Of a stretch of DNA of 33,633 nucleotides, positions 1 through 23,720 are shown in pieces. Origin of the DNA: a virus (lineage: Duplodnaviria > Heunggongvirae > Uroviricota > Caudoviricetes); IMG/VR virus record IMGVR_UViG_2529292906_000021; one strand, 5' to 3'. The notes below the pieces were generated by a model. It saw only the letters and a program-made list of their open reading frames with translations. It was not told where the DNA came from and did not search any database. Every line of letters starts with the position of its first letter. Position 1 is the first letter of the stretch. The position numbers and the translations under genes are program-made.

Positions 1-1131
1 TCAAATGACCAGTTTTTTCCATTCCTTACCGCGTGCGTCGTTGTAAATATCGGTCATTTTTTGATTCGAATGGCCTAGCAAAATTTTGGTATCAACCCCC
101 TGCTCTCTGAACAATCGCTCTGATAAAGATCTCTGCTCATGGAAAGAGGGAGGGGTGCCATTAGCACGCCAGTTGTAATCCACAGAATCCCGGGCTTTTT
201 TAAATGCAACGGTTAATGTTGCTGGCTTAACCATCCCGCCGCGCTTAGCTGTCCCTTTCGCGTGATGGTGGTGCAATAGCCACGGACTAAGAACGCAATC
301 GCGGCAGGATGACACCACATCATCCAGGGTGAGATTTAATTTATCGCAACGCAGAGCCAGAGGGATGGCAATCCGGGTTCCTGTTTTTTGCTGTTCGACA
401 TGAAGATAACCATCCCGGATATCCGAAAATTGCATTTTGCAAATATCTGAAAGGCGCTGGCCTGTCATCAGTGCCAGCAGCATACCGCGCTGTAAAAAGT
501 AACCATCCTTTTCCGCTGCGTTATAAATCATCATCCACTCATCAAAAGTCAGTCGCTGTCTTGATATCCGCACCTGCGGTTTTTTTGCCGATTCTGCAGG
601 GTTAAAGCCTGGCGGGACATCGCCCGTTTGCTGAGCTTCCCGGAAAACATCGATCAGTACTTTCCTGAAAATTTGTCCCATTCTGTTATGTCCTCTGGCC
701 TTGTACTCTTCCAGTACTGATACCACATCTTTTACGGTTATGGCATCTAACCGTCTGGTGCCAAAACGTTCATCAAATACCCTGAGAGGGGCCGCTTTCT
801 GTTTCAGCGTGTTGAGTTTGATCTCGCCGTTTTCATATCTTTCCTGTTGAATTTTTCTGTAATTATTCAGAAAAATGGTAACGGTTGATGAACCGCCGGT
901 ATCACTAATAATTTTCTCCTGCAGACTGAGCATTTGTTCCATTTGCTGCCGGGCAAGACGGCTGTTCGCTTCTGCTGCAATAGTTTCTGCCAGTTTCTGG
1001 TCAATACTGCCGAGACCGTGATTTTTGCCTGTTATGGGATGCCTGTAACGCCAGTAAACTTTGTTATTTCTTTTGTCAAAATACGGAGATAATCCCGGAA
1101 CATCGGTTTTATATTTTCGCGGGCGCGCCAT
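1..1131 (-). CDS. int: Tyrosine-type phage integrase (lambda Int family)
   Basis: 376-aa ORF; C-terminal region (…FHEQRSLSERLF…LLGHSNQKMTDIY…) has the tyrosine-recombinase R/H/R/Y arrangement; the stop codon is bases 1-3 so the gene is complete; xis overlaps its start. att site would lie left of the window. Confidence 0.9.
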   Translation of the reverse strand: MARPRKYKTDVPGLSPYFDKRNNKVYWRYRHPITGKNHGLGSIDQKLAETIAAEANSRLARQQMEQMLSLQEKIISDTGGSSTVTIFLNNYRKIQQERYENGEIKLNTLKQKAAPLRVFDERFGTRRLDAITVKDVVSVLEEYKARGHNRMGQIFRKVLIDVFREAQQTGDVPPGFNPAESAKKPQVRISRQRLTFDEWMMIYNAAEKDGYFLQRGMLLALMTGQRLSDICKMQFSDIRDGYLHVEQQKTGTRIAIPLALRCDKLNLTLDDVVSSCRDCVLSPWLLHHHHAKGTAKRGGMVKPATLTVAFKKARDSVDYNWRANGTPPSFHEQRSLSERLFREQGVDTKILLGHSNQKMTDIYNDARGKEWKKLVI

Positions 1132-1421: not shown

Positions 1422-3893
1422 TTAAAAATCAGCCTGACTCGGGATCAGTTTTTGCCAGATAACTGAAACGTATTTTGCCTGGTAACGGGCGTCATCAAGT
1501 GCATTATGGCGCTCACCTTCGAATGGAATAGCCGTTCTGGCATCGAAGTCTATGGCTTTCCCCAGCTCAACGATTGTGCGTACATCGCGATCGTTGTAGT
1601 AACGCCACGGGCAGGGGATCCCCTGCCGTTCGTATGAACGGCGCAAAATCGTGTTGTCGAAGTTGGCTCCATTTCCCCAAACCTGAACAAAAAATTCACC
1701 GGAGTTTTCGTCGATAAATTCCCGCAATTGTAACAGTGCATCATCTAACGGGATTTCATCGGTCATAATGGCAGATTGCGCTTCGCGTGATTGCTTAAGC
1801 CACCATTTAATGGTGTCCCGATCAATGACTCCGCCAGCAGTTTCCAGATCGATAGTCTTACTAAATTCCGGTCCCATATCTCCGGTTTGCGGATCGAAAA
1901 ATATTGCACCTATTGAGATGATCGGGGCATCAGGATTTTTTCCCATGGTTTCAAGGTCGATCATTAGATGGTCACACGTCCTGCTGGTGGATGTGATTTC
2001 GTGATGACCGTTCACCTTAATTGAGCGATCTGCCGTCTCGCCAGTTTCATTATCGCTATCGTGATGCTGATTGCCGCCAGTGTTCTCCTTGTGTGGATGT
2101 TCAGCGCCTTCCATTTCCTCCGGATCATCTTCCTGAACTTCAACCTGATACTCTTCATCGAATGTTTCCTGGTATGTTGCGTCGCCCATCACCGCGCCAC
2201 AATCAGGGCAGTTGCCGCCGCCGGTCTGACCGCAGGCGGTGCAGACTTTTTCCACTTCCTGTTGCGCCACTGGTTCAGGCTGTTTCGTTTCTGGCTCGTT
2301 TTGTAACGCATTTGGGCTGTTTTGTTCCGCTTTTTGGTAGTTCCGTTCCGATTCATGCTGGTTCTGGTTCACAGAATCGCGGGTCTGGATCCCCTTAACC
2401 CATTTCGGATCATTCGGGTCACTAATCCCTTCAACAAATTCACCACGTGATGCAGCAAGCAACTTATCGGCGTCAGGCTGGCTGATATTGGCTGCCTGCA
2501 TAATTTTGTTTACTTCGTCAGCGGTAACTTTTATCGGCTCTGGTTGTTCTGAATCTTCAGCGGTATCTACATTTTGCGGTAAGCCCGTGTATGTGCCATT
2601 TTTTCGGGCAAAATATTCTTCTTTTGTGATTTCAGTGGCGCCAGCAGCCAGTGCCTTATCCAGACCAGAAAGTTTGTTTGCGCGACCGCATTTTTCTCCG
2701 TCCTTATCTGCGAAGAGGAAATAGAACGGCCCCTCACGCTCTACAGATGGTTCAGCTTCCGGCGCGGTTTCATTTTTTGGGATATCAGATACCTCAGTTT
2801 CCACTGCATCAGTTTGTGTTTCTGATGACTGGAGAACATCAACAGTGCCCAGGTCTGTTTCTTCATTCTCAAACACGCCCTTTGTCGTCAGGTATTCGCA
2901 GATATATTTGTTCAGTGCTATGGGATCTTTGTGAATGTCGATCGGACGCTCACGGACAAGGCCAAAAATAGTCTGGCGGTCGTAGCGAAGGGCATCAGGC
3001 TGTTTGCGCATTGATGCCGAGATACGCTTCCAGTCTTCGCGGTCGTTGTCGATAACTTCATTTTTTGCCCAGCGATGGATGCTGCCGTCAATGTTTCCGG
3101 CATCCACATCACCAGGCCAGAGAGCGTAGGCCAGTTCGTCATCCAGTGTTTTCCATGTCTGCTTGTATTCGCGATGAATGGCAGCAATGACCGGGCTGAT
3201 TTTTCCTGTTGAATTTTCACTGTGCTGTTGATTGGTTCTGGCGCGGGCGAGATCAATAACAGACGTGTATTTTCCGGTTTCCTTGCGTTCACCTTCGCGA
3301 CGTTTTTTCCAGATGCGCATCTCTGCCTGAATTTCGGGCCATTTGGCACCAGGCTTACATTTATGCTTAACCCACCCGATGGCATGCAGCTTAAGCTCCG
3401 GATACATGGCGTTAACTTCTGGCATTTTCATCAACGCTTCAACGATATGTCCGTCGAATGTTGCCATGTCTTCCTGCAACAATTCCTGTGCGCTAATAAC
3501 CATATCAACGGTGATGTTTTCACATGTGTCGAACTTAACCATGACAGCGTTCTGTACTTCAGGGGCCAGCTTGTCAAAAGTGACGTTCATCGGATCTGAT
3601 TCAGTCTCAACCGGGACAAAGGAAGCAGACTCCTCATCCCAGCGGTTTTCCTGCATATATTCAGCATCCCAGGAATCGAGGGCAGGGCGGGGTATACCGG
3701 GTTTATCCTCGCAAACAAGAAATTTATAAGCGCAGTCCTGAGCTGCAGGGAATTGCTCCAGAAATTGCCAATGAAATTTTGCGCGTGCGCGACGCTCATC
3801 ACCGGCTTCAATGGCAGTGGCCACCGCAACAGCGCTATCTTCTTTTATGGCCTGTTCATCAGGAATAGCAGCGCAAATAAAGACCTTACTCAT
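1422..3893 (-). CDS. Large prophage exonuclease (exodeoxyribonuclease VIII-like), C-terminal DnaQ/DEDDh-type 3'-5' exonuclease domain
   Basis: 823-aa ORF. C-terminal ~180 aa has the motifs MIDLETMG…, …VWGNGANFDNTIL…, …HNALDDARYQA typical of the DEDD exonuclease fold. A CxxC…CxxC zinc ribbon (CTACGQTGGGNCPDCG) sits mid-protein. RBS GAGGT precedes the ATG. Confidence 0.75.
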   Translation of the reverse strand: MSKVFICAAIPDEQAIKEDSAVAVATAIEAGDERRARAKFHWQFLEQFPAAQDCAYKFLVCEDKPGIPRPALDSWDAEYMQENRWDEESASFVPVETESDPMNVTFDKLAPEVQNAVMVKFDTCENITVDMVISAQELLQEDMATFDGHIVEALMKMPEVNAMYPELKLHAIGWVKHKCKPGAKWPEIQAEMRIWKKRREGERKETGKYTSVIDLARARTNQQHSENSTGKISPVIAAIHREYKQTWKTLDDELAYALWPGDVDAGNIDGSIHRWAKNEVIDNDREDWKRISASMRKQPDALRYDRQTIFGLVRERPIDIHKDPIALNKYICEYLTTKGVFENEETDLGTVDVLQSSETQTDAVETEVSDIPKNETAPEAEPSVEREGPFYFLFADKDGEKCGRANKLSGLDKALAAGATEITKEEYFARKNGTYTGLPQNVDTAEDSEQPEPIKVTADEVNKIMQAANISQPDADKLLAASRGEFVEGISDPNDPKWVKGIQTRDSVNQNQHESERNYQKAEQNSPNALQNEPETKQPEPVAQQEVEKVCTACGQTGGGNCPDCGAVMGDATYQETFDEEYQVEVQEDDPEEMEGAEHPHKENTGGNQHHDSDNETGETADRSIKVNGHHEITSTSRTCDHLMIDLETMGKNPDAPIISIGAIFFDPQTGDMGPEFSKTIDLETAGGVIDRDTIKWWLKQSREAQSAIMTDEIPLDDALLQLREFIDENSGEFFVQVWGNGANFDNTILRRSYERQGIPCPWRYYNDRDVRTIVELGKAIDFDARTAIPFEGERHNALDDARYQAKYVSVIWQKLIPSQADF

Positions 3894-18752: not shown

Positions 18753-18828
18753 GGCCCTTTAGCTCAGTGGTGAGAGCGAGCGACTCATAATCGCCAGGTC
18801 GCTGGTTCAAATCCAGCAAGGGCCACCA
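18753..18828 (+). tRNA. ileZ: tRNA with CAU anticodon (Ile2/lysidine type, ileZ-like)
   Basis: 76 nt with cloverleaf and 3' CCA; anticodon loop CUCAUAA; close to my recollection of E. coli ileX. Confidence 0.8.
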
Positions 18829-18835
18829 TCACATA

Positions 18836-18912
18836 CCGCCATTAGCTCATCAGGAAAGAGCGCCAGCCTTCGAAGCTGGTCGCGCGGAGTTCGGGTCCCC
18901 GAAGGCGGTCCA
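18836..18912 (+). tRNA. argN: tRNA-Arg (anticodon UCG), argN-like
   Basis: 77 nt; acceptor stem with one mismatch; anticodon loop CUUCGAA; 3' CCA present. Confidence 0.65.
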
Positions 18913-18925
18913 TTATCTGTATCCT

Positions 18926-19002
18926 GCGTTGTTAGCTCAGCCGGACAGAGCAATTGCCTTCTAAGCAATCGGTCACTGGTTCGAATCCAGTACAACGCGC
19001 CA
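18926..19002 (+). tRNA. argO: tRNA-Arg (anticodon UCU), argO-like
   Basis: 77 nt; acceptor GCGTTGT/ACAACGC; D-loop AGCTCAGCCGGA; anticodon loop CUUCUAA; T-loop GGTTCGAATCC; 3' CCA. Confidence 0.8.
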
Positions 19003-19017
19003 CACTTATTTTCCCTG

Positions 19018-19041
19018 GCTCGCTTTTGCGGGCTTTTTTTT
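19018..19041 (+). terminator. Rho-independent terminator after the tRNA cluster
   Basis: GCTCGC-TTTT-GCGGGC hairpin followed by an 8-T run. Confidence 0.6.
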
Positions 19042-19047
19042 AAATGT

Positions 19048-19262
19048 CTCACAATTCAGGCGGTTGACTGTTGTCTGGTTTGCGGGGAGTTTGTTAAAAG
19101 AAACTGGCATGGTGAATCCCCCTGTGCGGAGGGGCAATCAGCGAGTAGGTATATGGGATAATCGCGGATTCAGGTGCTGGTACTGAATTCACCGGGAGGC
19201 ACCCGGCACCATGCAATGGCACATAGCGCCACTCTCCAGCCCCTCTCCGGAGGGGCTTTTCT
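19048..19262 (+). repeat. Copy 1 of a ~215-235-bp paralogous element ending in an intrinsic terminator (candidate small RNA unit)
   Basis: Shares with copy 2: CTCACAATTCAG…TTGAC…ATGGTGAATCCCCCTG(T/A)GCGGAGGGGC…TCACCGGGAGGCACCCGGCACCATG…GCCCCTCTCCGGAGGGGC + T-run. Confidence 0.5.
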
Positions 19263-19451
19263 GTGCCGGATACATCACAGTTTCTGGAACCTTAGGTACT
19301 ACAGTATCAGTCAGGGTGCTATATTTTCAGATGTGATGAAAGCCTGTCAGCAGGCAGGGCGTATCGGAAATGACCCAGTAGAGAAAACGTTGACTCAGAT
19401 ACCGGTGCTGAGTTACCGGGAAACCGGCATCACATGACCGCTATCCTTCCA

Positions 19452-19478
19452 GGCCCATCCGCTCCGGTGGGCCTTTTT
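19452..19478 (+). terminator. Rho-independent terminator preceding element copy 2
   Basis: GGCCCA-(10 nt)-TGGGCC hairpin followed by TTTTT. Confidence 0.5.
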
Positions 19479-19515
19479 ACTGCAGAAAACAGGTTCCCCG
19501 TTAAATGCTATGTTG

Positions 19516-19749
19516 CTCACAATTCAGTAAGTTGACAGTTGCCTGTCAGACTGGGCATTTGTTAAAAAAATTTCGCATGGTGAATCCCCCTGAGCGGAGG
19601 GGCGACTGGTGACGGTATAATCTCTGATTATCAAAACGAGAATGACGCGGGTTTAGTGGCACCGGACTGAACTCACCGGGAGGCACCCGGCACCATGTGC
19701 ATGATGATACAGATACGCGGCTTTAGCCCCTCTCCGGAGGGGCTTTCTT
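19516..19749 (+). repeat. Copy 2 of the paralogous element (candidate small RNA unit)
   Basis: Same conserved blocks and identical terminal hairpin GCCCCTCTCCGGAGGGGC + TTTCTT; contains TTGACA and TATAAT hexamers, though not at canonical spacing. Confidence 0.5.
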
Positions 19750-19977
19750 ATGGACAAAAAAAGCCCGCGCTGGGAGACGCGGGCGGCAAGGAATAAACAA
19801 TAAAACGTGAAGTAATATTTCAGCTGGCGAATAATACCCCATAGTAATCACTCTGCGCAACTGCGCGGTCTTTTTCGAATTGCGGGCTGTAGTCTCCCTT
19901 CTGCCATTGTCCTGTAACTTCCGGACTTCAGCCTGCTCCTTATCTGACTCACAACATTATCCCGCCCGGGAGGATTC

Positions 19978-21981: not shown

Positions 21982-22197
21982 ATGTACCAGATGGAAAAAA
22001 TCACAACAGGTGTGTCATACACCACGTCAGCGGTGGGAACGGGCTACTGGTTCCTGCAGTTGCTGGACAGGGTTTCCCCGTCTCAGTGGGCGGCAATAGG
22101 CGTGCTGGGGAGTCTGCTGTTTGGGCTGCTGACATATCTGACTAACCTGTATTTCAAAATCAGAGAGGACCGTCGTAAGGCTGCACGGGGAGAGTAA
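21982..22197 (+). CDS. Class II holin (phage 21 S-like pinholin)
   Basis: 71 aa with dual start (MYQMEK…), two TM segments and charged C-terminus …[22 protein letters not shown], very close to my recollection of S21. Confidence 0.8.
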
Positions 22198-22201
22198 TTC
22201 A

Positions 22202-22546
22202 ATGACTCAAAACTATGAACTGATTGTGAAAGGGATCCGCAATTTTGAGAATAAAGTTACGGTAACTTTAGCGTTACGGGACAAAAAACGCTTTGACGGT
22301 GAAATTTTTGACCTGGACATCTCGCTGGACCGTGTTGAAGGTGCCGCGCTGGAGTTTTATGAGGCAGCAGCCAGAAGGAGCATCAGACAGGTCTTCCTGG
22401 ATGTTGCTGCCGGGTTATGTGAAGGGGATGAGCAGTCGCCGGAAAAGCGCCCCGTAATTTTAGAGGCGCAGGATGTGTTGATAACCTACAGAGGAAAACT
22501 ACCGGGAATAATTACGGGTTCTCTGAAGAGTCCGCCGAAATGGTAA
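22202..22546 (+). CDS. Hypothetical protein inserted between holin and endolysin
   Basis: 114 aa; GGGGAGAG RBS; ATG 5 nt after the holin stop; no recognisable domain. Confidence 0.55.
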   Translation: MTQNYELIVKGIRNFENKVTVTLALRDKKRFDGEIFDLDISLDRVEGAALEFYEAAARRSIRQVFLDVAAGLCEGDEQSPEKRPVILEAQDVLITYRGKLPGIITGSLKSPPKW

Positions 22547-22784
22547 TTTTACCAGCATATTTTTCATCCAGTAATACAGCAAGCCGCCTGAAAGAGTCTT
22601 GTTGTTCCTGAGACCATTTGGGATTGCATGATTCAAACTGGATTGATGCCAGCGTTGATTGCATCTGTTCCCTTGGAATTGAGAATGCCAGATATGAGAA
22701 GGCGACGGTAAGGGTATTCACGTCTTCCCGAAGCCTGGAAATGCTGTCGAGCAACTCCTGTAGAGAAATGGTGTTATTGTCCAT
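22512..22784 (-). CDS. Hypothetical protein, convergent with 22202-22546
   Basis: 90 aa; GAGGA RBS 8 nt upstream of the ATG at 22784; 3' end overlaps the convergent gene by 35 bp; a hairpin at 22815-22834 lies upstream. Confidence 0.5.
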   Translation of the reverse strand: MDNNTISLQELLDSISRLREDVNTLTVAFSYLAFSIPREQMQSTLASIQFESCNPKWSQEQQDSFRRLAVLLDEKYAGKITISADSSENP

Positions 22785-22889
22785 AAATAATCCTCATGAT
22801 TGTATTGACCTGTTAGCAGCCTGAGGCAACAGGCTGGAACTGATAAACATATCCAGGGCTCAGAAACCGATAAATCCTGATAAATATCC

Positions 22890-23423: not shown

Positions 23424-23582
23424 GCAGAATATTTTGCTGAAAAATAAGGCATGGCCACGCGGGCGGATAACATGAAATCCTGCGAACTGGCGAAACGTAA
23501 GTGAATAAAAGTAAAAACCCCGTTTGTTGGCACCAAGCGGGGTTTTGTGTTTCCTGACTCCGGAAAAGTCAAAGGAGAAAGT

Positions 23583-23720
23583 GTGTTTGATTTTAGCAAA
23601 CTGATTCGGGAGATTCGAGTGATGGCTGAAAAATTATCCACCTGGAAGTTCATTCTTATCTGGCTGGTGTTTGTGATTATGGCCTCCGGTTATTTCATCG
23701 GTCAGATACGCTGGTGGTGA
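23583..23720 (+). CDS. Putative small membrane protein between endolysin and Rz
   Basis: 45-aa ORF from GTG with AAGGAG 5-7 nt upstream; one predicted TM helix ([20 protein letters not shown]); stop 1 nt before the Rz start; too short for the ORF track. Confidence 0.3.

Follow-up and report, generated by a model that had tools for sequence, protein, structure and literature searches.

A standard ydfR gene and a putatively autonomous antisense moron in the lysis cassette of an Escherichia coli lambdoid prophage

Why does a lambdoid prophage carry two small genes that face each other, and overlap at their 3' ends, between its holin and its endolysin? This arrangement is found in IMG/VR record IMGVR_UViG_2529292906_000021, a stretch of 33,633 nucleotides (the window) that covers the left-hand two thirds of a lambdoid prophage of E. 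coli. A first-pass annotation, made from the sequence alone, described a plus-strand gene of 114 amino acids (aa) and a minus-strand gene of 90 aa, and proposed that the pair had been inserted into the lysis cassette as a moron such as a toxin-antitoxin system or a lysis-timing regulator. Both open reading frames (ORFs) and their 35-bp overlap are where it placed them (Table 1), so its observation is confirmed; its interpretation is supported in part. We propose that the plus gene, ydfR, is a standard late gene, that the minus gene is an autonomous antisense moron, and that together they form an old convergent two-gene module. We are confident of the descriptive parts of this account, and we give it about an even chance of being right once the mechanism that we suggest below is included.

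Both ORFs begin with ATG, and both have the good ribosome-binding sites that had been claimed for them: a GGAG-type Shine-Dalgarno (SD) sequence precedes the ydfR start codon, which is separated from the holin stop codon by 4 nt, and GAGG precedes the ATG of the minus gene by 7 nt. The minus gene's TAA stop codon lies opposite, on the antisense strand, the Ile-Thr codons of the ITGSL motif in YdfR. In identical RefSeq DNA, the Prokaryotic Genome Annotation Pipeline (PGAP) names the plus-strand product "YdfR family protein" and the minus-strand product (WP_000369850.1) "hypothetical protein". Neither product resembles a holin, an endolysin, or a spanin, as had been noted: there were no matches to such families, no transmembrane (TM) or signal-anchor-release (SAR) segment, and no lipobox.

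The plus gene is not an insertion. Its match to PF07041 scores 145 bits (the cut-off is 25) and places residues 1-111 on positions 1-91 of the 93 in the profile. The order S-ydfR-R (holin, ydfR, lysozyme) is found in the Qin prophage of K-12 (essQ-ydfR-rrrQ), in Stx1 and Stx2 phages, in BP-4795, and in others, and DNA of the cassette was matched in 4,408 of 5,426 complete E. coli genomes. ydfR is the usual occupant of the holin-lysozyme gap in E. coli lambdoid prophages, and ydfR/DUF1327 genes are standard between S and R in S21-type cassettes, so neither the idea of an inserted pair nor the moron reading applies to this gene. ydfR is the kind of widely conserved cassette component that the first-pass annotation itself had named as evidence against its reading.

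YdfR has an N-terminal beta3-alpha domain (residues 1-71) and a conserved tail (residues 72-114) that ends in ...ITGSLKSPPKW. An AlphaFold2 (AF2) model has three beta-strands and a helix in residues 5-71, with a predicted local distance difference test score (pLDDT) of about 65-86, and low confidence for the C-terminal 40 residues; its structural matches were weak and generic, and none was significant. In two-hybrid and co-purification assays, residues 1-72 of K-12 YdfR bind RNase E (its N-terminal, catalytic half) and, less strongly, RNase G; the protein co-purifies with RNA, and overproducing it altered few transcripts and did not slow growth (PMC13232886). K-12 YdfR and YdfR from the window belong to the same Pfam family, occupy the same position between holin and lysozyme, and are about 80% identical over residues 1-72, which is the segment that binds RNase E and RNase G. 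Because the N-terminal domain of its K-12 homologue binds RNase E, and that homologue co-purifies with RNA, YdfR is probably expressed late to modulate the RNA metabolism of the host, and is probably not a lysis protein. K-12 YdfR differs from the window's protein in that it has 103 aa and another C-terminus, and its gene overlaps rrrQ directly. Of the ITGSL tail, the embedded terminator, and the antisense gene, all of which the window has, the K-12 locus has none.

The minus gene, in contrast, is optional. Relative to an S-ydfR-R cassette without it, whose YdfR has 116 aa, the window has an extra segment of about 290 bp, and the distance from the ydfR start to the R start is 688 bp in cassettes with the minus gene and 414 bp in those without. 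In a sample of 79 phage loci, 44 carried the minus gene and 30 were ydfR loci that lacked it. The GC content of the insert is 0.44-0.45, as compared to 0.50-0.55 in its flanks. DNA specific to the insert is present in 1,221 of the 5,426 complete genomes; among the matches listed, we did not see it in O157 Sakai or EDL933. Thus, both the insertion and the moron reading hold for the minus gene, which is an optional insert of lower GC content with its own SD sequence and terminator.

A 90-aa antisense ORF is uninformative by itself, as the window contains dozens of spurious ORFs of similar size. However, homologues of the minus gene keep a frame of 83-93 aa across genera and down to about 30-40% identity. 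Also, the ratio of nonsynonymous to synonymous divergence (dN/dS; Nei-Gojobori, codons 1-78, four copies, two of them outside any ydfR context) is 0.17-0.37. Together with the PGAP call and the match to phrog_2411, this argues that the minus gene is a real gene. Its product, Orf90, is predicted to be a net acidic, four-helix protein; the AF2 model also has four helices (pLDDT 66.5), and neither the sequence nor the model suggests a signal peptide or a TM segment. Orf90 contains the conserved core motif of the phrog_2411 family, L..L...VN.L.VAFSYLAFS.P.E....L..L.FES.N. The family appears to be narrow: a profile search of 1.84 billion cluster representatives found only 20 relatives, all of those that could be placed were from Enterobacterales (Escherichia, Shigella, Citrobacter, or Serratia), and a metagenome scan for distant members found none. 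Searches of Pfam, NCBIfam, and PADLOC gave no family for the minus gene. (We dismissed a match to 'Mip' as noise, since its E-value was 0.037 and it scored 13.7 bits against a cut-off of 50.) We found no relevant literature on Ybl58, WP_000369850.1, phrog_2411, or DUF1327 by those names.

The minus gene also seems to have its own transcription unit. A hairpin that resembles an intrinsic terminator lies beyond its stop codon and within ydfR (Table 1). A solo copy of the minus gene that is adjacent to iha, where ydfR is absent, has a hairpin at the same +45 offset (GCGCCTC...GAGGCGC plus TTTGT), so we read the hairpin as the minus gene's own terminator. (A generic terminator scan missed the hairpin in the window, which is followed by just 4 U.) Upstream of the gene, block A is conserved at the upstream edge of the cassette in Citrobacter, in E. 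coli, and in cassettes between the tail genes M and L, and it is degenerate in a cassette that lacks the minus gene. Block A includes a candidate -10 element, and transcription would begin near position 22840. In the window's leader, block B pairs directly with block C, which is a collapsed form of the UCAGCC...GGCUGA pairing that we describe below. These features indicate that the minus gene is a moron with its own transcription unit facing the late operon, driven by a putative promoter at block A. Candidate sites for sigma-28 ('GCCGATAA', in Citrobacter leaders), sigma-54, LexA, and IHF were noticed by eye and dropped, as each lacked a second half-site.

Table 1. Features of the gene pair and its neighbors (positions in the window), and other contexts of phrog_2411-type genes (loci).
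Feature	Position or locus	Strand	Evidence or remarks
Lambda-type integrase	1-1131		left end of window
S21-type class II holin (S), 71 aa, M1/M4 dual-start motif	21982..22197	+	PF04971 2.3e-32; phrog holin; PGAP 'class II holin family protein' in identical DNA
ydfR-family gene, 114 aa	22202..22546	+	PF07041 7e-43; phrog_406 4e-68; AF2 model; family alignment
Intrinsic-terminator-like hairpin, GCGCCUC-N9-GGGGCGC then UUUUCC	22443..22469	-	45 nt past minus-gene stop, within ydfR codons PEKRPVILEAQ
Tail-to-tail overlap, 35 bp	22512..22546	both	ORF coordinates; same geometry at locus L115/L122
Antisense cargo gene, Ybl58 / phrog_2411 family, 90 aa	22512..22784	-	phrog_2411 1.1e-58 over 1-90/90; 62 homologues; dN/dS
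Indel relative to S-ydfR(116 aa)-R cassettes without the minus gene, ~290 bp	22541..22835 (approx.)		alignment with phage vB_EcoS-640R1
5' leader of the minus gene	22785..22837	-	SD GAGG 22792-22795; hairpin CAGCCUG-UUGCCU-CAGGCUG 22818-22837
Block A, CCCTGGATATGTT	22846..22858	-	only exact match in window; candidate -10 TATGTT 22851-22846
Phage lysozyme R, 177 aa	22890..23423	+	PF00959 1.3e-23; phrog_7 endolysin; divergent from minus gene
phrog_2411-type gene between tail genes M and L	L093, L099		
phrog_2411-type gene after tail gene I	L115, L122		
phrog_2411-type gene beside terminase	L090		
phrog_2411-type gene upstream of a different holin, Citrobacter	L103, L105		
phrog_2411-type gene on short contigs	L097, L102		

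We traced the distant members of phrog_2411 into their contigs to read their genomic context, and the convergent arrangement recurs. In every phage context, the phrog_2411-type gene is antisense to the late genes, and it overlaps a short sense ORF by 7-47 bp (nine contexts; Table 1). Similarly, the window's minus gene is antisense to the late operon and shares 35 bp of the sense gene's 3' end; across its relatives, the overlap is 7-54 bp. The sense partners are proteins of 58-85 aa, or the end of a 238-aa protein, and have a common N-terminal coiled coil ('SLExRVE...'). Their C-terminal tails resemble the tail of YdfR ('...GKLPGIITGSLKSPPKW'); examples are '...EKITGSLRAPIKL', '...EKITGSLFAPLS', '...IIGSLITPPEL', and '...QIFGDLKKPPSY'. 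A hidden Markov model (HMM) built solely from five stand-alone partners finds two partners that were not used in training (E = 1e-7 and 2e-5) and ranks YdfR variants above nearly all of 2,418 decoy ORFs, with individual E-values that are weak. The ITGSL motif is encoded by different synonymous codons in E. coli and in Citrobacter.

The tail of the sense gene changes along with the antisense gene. Between S and R, YdfR of 114 aa is paired with the 90-aa antisense gene, YdfR of 183 or 211 aa is paired with an unrelated 88-aa antisense gene (phrog_2572; 53-bp overlap), and YdfR of 268 aa is paired with an unrelated 104-aa antisense gene (phrog_1853). BLASTP and hhalign found no homology among these three antisense families. 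Between M and L, partners with the same N-terminal coil bear three different tails, each with a different antisense gene. The exchangeable unit therefore appears to be the 3' end of the sense gene together with the antisense ORF. We also note that the ydfR-R junction, equivalent to positions 22541-22889 of the window, is a hotspot for such cassettes (L003 and L008, of the Stx2 phage 86 type; L004, from PhiR5_1; and L007), and that the in-frame YdfR extensions in the 183/211-aa and the 268-aa forms both start with ...PP[TS][AT]LRSEK. The products of phrog_2411, phrog_2572, and phrog_1853 have a loose 'helix-(L/I)P-x-E-helix' pattern, although a common origin has not been demonstrated.

The antisense genes of these cassettes share a structured leader. 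The order of its elements, upstream of the antisense gene, is block A (CCCTGGWTATGWT, with a candidate -10), block B (GGTTCAGCCC), hairpin H1, hairpin H2, the SD sequence, and the ATG. The loop of H2 is invariant (GGATGGCTGATTAAC; also AUGGCUGAU and AUGGCUGAUUAAC), and UCAGCC in block B is complementary to GGCUGA in this loop. Pairing between the two would probably form a pseudoknot; both are invariant, so covariation is uninformative for this pairing. For H1 and H2, covariation supports the structure. Across nine sequences, 87% of cells are paired; shuffles give 75%, and sliding the partners gives 23-45%. Compensatory changes are seen at 10 pairs. With larger sets of distinct leaders, which were aligned by fitting them to the covariance model and whose H1 is partly fixed by the search pattern, pairing is 86.5% versus 69% (13 leaders) and 90.7% versus 84% (64 leaders, with compensatory changes in 12 of 14 pairs). 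Attenuation at H1 is possible, because a U-tract follows H1 in several of the leaders.

Many unrelated genes are found behind this leader. A covariance model built from nine leaders matches directly upstream of unrelated cargos: phrog_1853 in Stx2 phage 86 (E = 1.5e-9) and two Atlantibacter-type cargos (4e-14 and 4e-12). A pattern scan of IMG/VR gave at least 120 leader matches, and we took a census of the cargos at 80 of these loci. An ORF lies immediately downstream of 76 of the 80 leaders. The cargos form at least 19 clusters that are unrelated by BLAST, mostly of 42-99 aa; apart from one that is DUF1883, none matches Pfam. In most cases, the cargo overlaps a convergent sense ORF by 14-54 bp, with a sense tail that is specific to the cargo cluster, and the late genes are always on the opposite strand from the cargo. 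As for their positions, 27 leaders are between M and L, 5 are between I and J, 2 are beside ydfR, 2 are beside terminase, and 37 are unclassified; two leaders are present on some contigs. Rfam searches with this region of the window and with a full leader gave no meaningful match, and this family of leader-sharing cassettes is apparently undescribed: we found no description of it.

Examples of the leader are at L093 4922-5003, L115 2845-2931, L090 4916-5003, L008 3629-3714(-), L119 2931-3013(-), and L125 2880-2971(-), and more than 90 further matches are in L128-L207. Many of the cassettes that could not be classified by our tail-gene references (such as L128, L134, L135, and L143, all from IMG/VR) are between glycosyltransferase-like genes (one of 485 aa, with a weak match to PF00535, and one of about 200 aa). 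In L128, the sense partner has 111 aa, a YdfR-like strand-strand-strand-helix pattern, and its own tail.

How might such a pair work? ydfR would be transcribed along with S and R from the late promoter. The minus-gene unit would consist of block A with its candidate -10, the hairpin leader, the SD sequence, the ORF, and the terminator buried in ydfR, and its protein may be produced by the prophage as long as the late operon is not transcribed. Because the 3' part of the minus gene lies antisense to ydfR, the antisense interference that the first-pass annotation suggested is physically possible, as is interference by collision. Upon Q-antiterminated late transcription, head-on polymerases and about 100 nt of complementary RNA (22443-22546) would turn the minus gene off; conversely, transcription of the minus gene may damp leaky read-through into ydfR-R. 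Finally, we predict that Orf90 probably acts on its sense partner by binding or counteracting the partner's conserved tail, which in YdfR is ...ITGSLKSPPKW.

Several observations weigh against the combination of a two-gene module and this mechanism. First, the two genes are not obligate partners: the minus gene is alone in four contexts, and ydfR with the same tail is alone in 30 of the 79 loci. Second, the homology between the sense partners and YdfR is weak for any single sequence (E-values of 0.002-2). Third, the synonymous divergence of the YdfR tail is low within E. coli (pS, the proportion of synonymous differences, is 0.09, as compared to 0.27 in the N-terminal domain), and the ratio of nonsynonymous to synonymous differences (pN/pS) is about 0.5. 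Because of this low synonymous divergence, part of the tail's conservation in E. coli may be at the level of DNA or RNA (the embedded terminator, or recombination) rather than protein. Fourth, the covariance model does not detect the window's leader at E ≤ 1, so its membership in the leader family is suggested by its cargo family, its geometry, and the conserved blocks (A, B, and C, aligned by eye) rather than by the full RNA structure. Fifth, a generic sigma-70 scan upstream of the minus gene found no consensus promoter, and the candidate -10 is paired with a weak -35. Lastly, the AF2 models of both YdfR and Orf90 are of only moderate quality (pLDDT 64-67), and Orf90 has no significant fold match (the best E-values were 2 in PDB and 0.57 in BFVD).

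Some of these points fit another explanation, which we consider possible but doubtful: the minus gene could be an independent cargo for lysogenic conversion, defense, or anti-defense that has no link to ydfR. The overlap and the tails would then be by-products of a sense ORF that reads into a recombined cassette until it reaches a stop codon. This would account for the solo copies that are under purifying selection (beside iha, beside an autotransporter gene on a plasmid, and in Serratia, where it is a core gene flanked by dinI and bssS), for ydfR genes with the same tail and no minus gene, and for the low synonymous divergence of the tail within E. coli. The cargo families are also hypervariable, as genes in an arms race would be. 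However, the ITGSL-type tail is kept, with synonymous codon changes, even though the cargos are just 35-60% identical and the N-terminal parts of the sense proteins are unrelated in size (62 to 238 aa). Furthermore, the short stand-alone partners (58-85 aa) are not extensions of other genes.

A toxin-antitoxin system, which the earlier interpretation listed among its options, is unlikely, as is an abortive-infection system; in either case, YdfR or its tail would be the toxin and Orf90 would neutralize it. Both genes are short, they lie next to each other and are inherited together in many contexts, the pair is in a prophage, and the way that tails and cargos vary together is reminiscent of polymorphic toxin-immunity pairs. 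But the genes are convergent and do not share an operon, as a type II system would, and each of them is often found alone. PADLOC, Pfam, and NCBIfam searches gave no toxin or antitoxin match. Overproducing K-12 YdfR, which is not the 114-aa form, did not cause a growth defect (PMC13232886). A type I system does not fit either, as both products are soluble by sequence and by model and the antisense transcript is protein-coding.

We consider it still less probable that one or both genes regulate the timing of lysis, in the manner of an antiholin or by controlling the endolysin. The genes are located between S and R, ydfR is closely coupled to S for translation, and the minus-strand transcript would be antisense to the S-ydfR-R mRNA just upstream of R. 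Yet both proteins lack TM and SAR segments and homology to holins, the holin already has a dual-start antiholin motif, many S21-type cassettes work without the minus gene, and the same cargo family and leader are found in tail operons and beside terminase, far from lysis genes. Least probable is that the minus ORF is untranslated and that only an antisense RNA, or nothing, is functional: it has no recognizable domain and its promoter signals are weak, but its low dN/dS extends to copies outside of the ydfR context, its length is kept across genera, its SD sequence is at the proper distance, and frameshifted copies stand out as occasional exceptions.

Going beyond the window, we tentatively suggest that the siphophages of enterobacteria have a set of integron-like, swappable antisense cassettes in their late operons. 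In these cassettes, a leader RNA that is probably pseudoknotted might gate the expression of hypervariable small proteins that are cognate to YdfR-like tails, as a switch that senses if the late operon is silent or active. If so, the switch could be a safety catch for the late genes, a device for kin-discriminating exclusion or defense, or a means of regulating a factor that binds RNase E. Should the leader prove to be a riboregulator, and the cargos to act on the tails of their partners, temperate phages would have a new means of coupling the expression of accessory genes to the decision between lysogeny and lysis, and the cassettes would offer a wealth of small phage effectors. Roughly one in five complete E. 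coli genomes has this same antisense gene, and most have ydfR; both are annotated as 'hypothetical' or as a DUF. Our analysis places ydfR, whose sole known activity is binding RNase E, as a normal resident of the lysis cassette.

We also examined copies of the phrog_2411 family that are solo, decayed, or frameshifted. Solo homologues are beside the gene for the iha adhesin/siderophore receptor in the chromosome of E. coli L26 (L088 2446-2718(-)) and beside a large autotransporter gene in plasmid pTK3896_2 (L089 2467-2736(-)). These two are intact and diverged, are flanked by remnants of insertion sequences, and each exact sequence is present on at least 1,000 contigs. A family member of 92-93 aa sits on the chromosome, as a conserved gene flanked by dinI and bssS, in several species of Serratia and in a metagenome-assembled genome from Enterobacterales (L106-L111, at about 2974-3255, and L100 4001-4279). 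The dinI-bssS gene has no convergent partner, and by eye, there is a sigma-E-like spacing (GGAAC...TCTG) upstream of it. In a Salmonella enterica prophage (L116-L118 2658-2921(-)), the copy is decayed, with the C-terminal half of the phrog_2411 gene left, and its leader and a 63-aa partner with an ITGSL tail are intact; next are a YdfR-like sense gene of 83 aa and then a different holin and lysozyme. Some E. coli copies are frameshifted (L085 2798-3082(-), P0061, and P0029), with fragments of 94 aa and 50 aa or with a double frameshift that restores the C-terminus, which implies that the 90-aa gene is dispensable in some lineages.

Turning to the rest of the window, the integrase is followed by a Q-like antiterminator, tRNA genes, a SASA/DUF6645 esterase, the lysis genes, terminase, and head genes. 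Over the 1.6 kb that surrounds the gene pair, the window is 100% identical to several E. coli chromosomes (such as AR_0017); the identity is 99% with phage vB_EcoS-783R2 and 88% with phage Chlobot. The lysozyme has a G/A-rich N-terminal segment that is compatible with a SAR domain, and Rz and Rz1 are downstream of it. A small ORF between the lysozyme and Rz (23547-23720, plus strand) would encode 57 aa if it starts at GTG, or 45 aa according to PGAP; it has one hydrophobic segment and no Pfam family. The three tRNA genes (18753-19002) have a CAT anticodon (Met according to ARAGORN and Ile according to PGAP), Arg-TCG, and Arg-TCT. They are followed by about 1 kb with no clear gene (19003-19977) and then by the DUF1737/SASA/DUF6645 esterase. 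Stx phages carry stx in this layout, between the tRNAs and the esterase; in the window, this position is empty. The protein that adjoins the integrase (823 aa; 1422-3893, minus strand) has a C-terminal domain similar to the Rv2179c-type 3'-5' exoribonuclease (PF16473, 2e-67), preceded by 640 N-terminal residues with no assigned domain.

Among known systems, the minus gene is most easily compared to the morons of phages, such as bor and lom of lambda and gene 15 of HK97 (gp15). Like these, it is an extra gene with its own promoter-like and terminator elements and a lower GC content, located between late genes that are adjacent in relatives; and like bor, which adjoins the lysis genes and points against late transcription, it is beside the lysis genes and opposes the late operon. 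Unlike these morons, it runs into the 3' end of the sense gene, it is one of a series of cassettes in which a single conserved, structured leader is kept and both the cargo and the C-terminus of the sense protein are swapped, and its product is predicted to be cytoplasmic rather than an envelope protein. The OOP RNA of lambda, which is antisense to cII, is similar in that it is a short convergent unit: the 3' ends of the unit and of the sense gene overlap, and the unit terminates inside that gene. Both arrangements have scope for RNase III-type and collision interference, which in the window is a possibility that we read from the sequence. The window's antisense transcript differs from OOP in that it encodes a conserved protein and lies in a late rather than an early operon. 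Polymorphic toxin-immunity loci and integron cassettes differ from the phage cassettes: for the latter we identified no toxin domain, recombinase, or attC-type site, and their genes are convergent instead of tandem and lie inside structural and lysis operons. What the phage cassettes have in common with these systems is a constant part (here, the N-terminal region of the sense protein and the leader) that flanks a swappable unit, formed by a variable tail and a cognate small gene, so that many unrelated cargos are found behind one conserved element.

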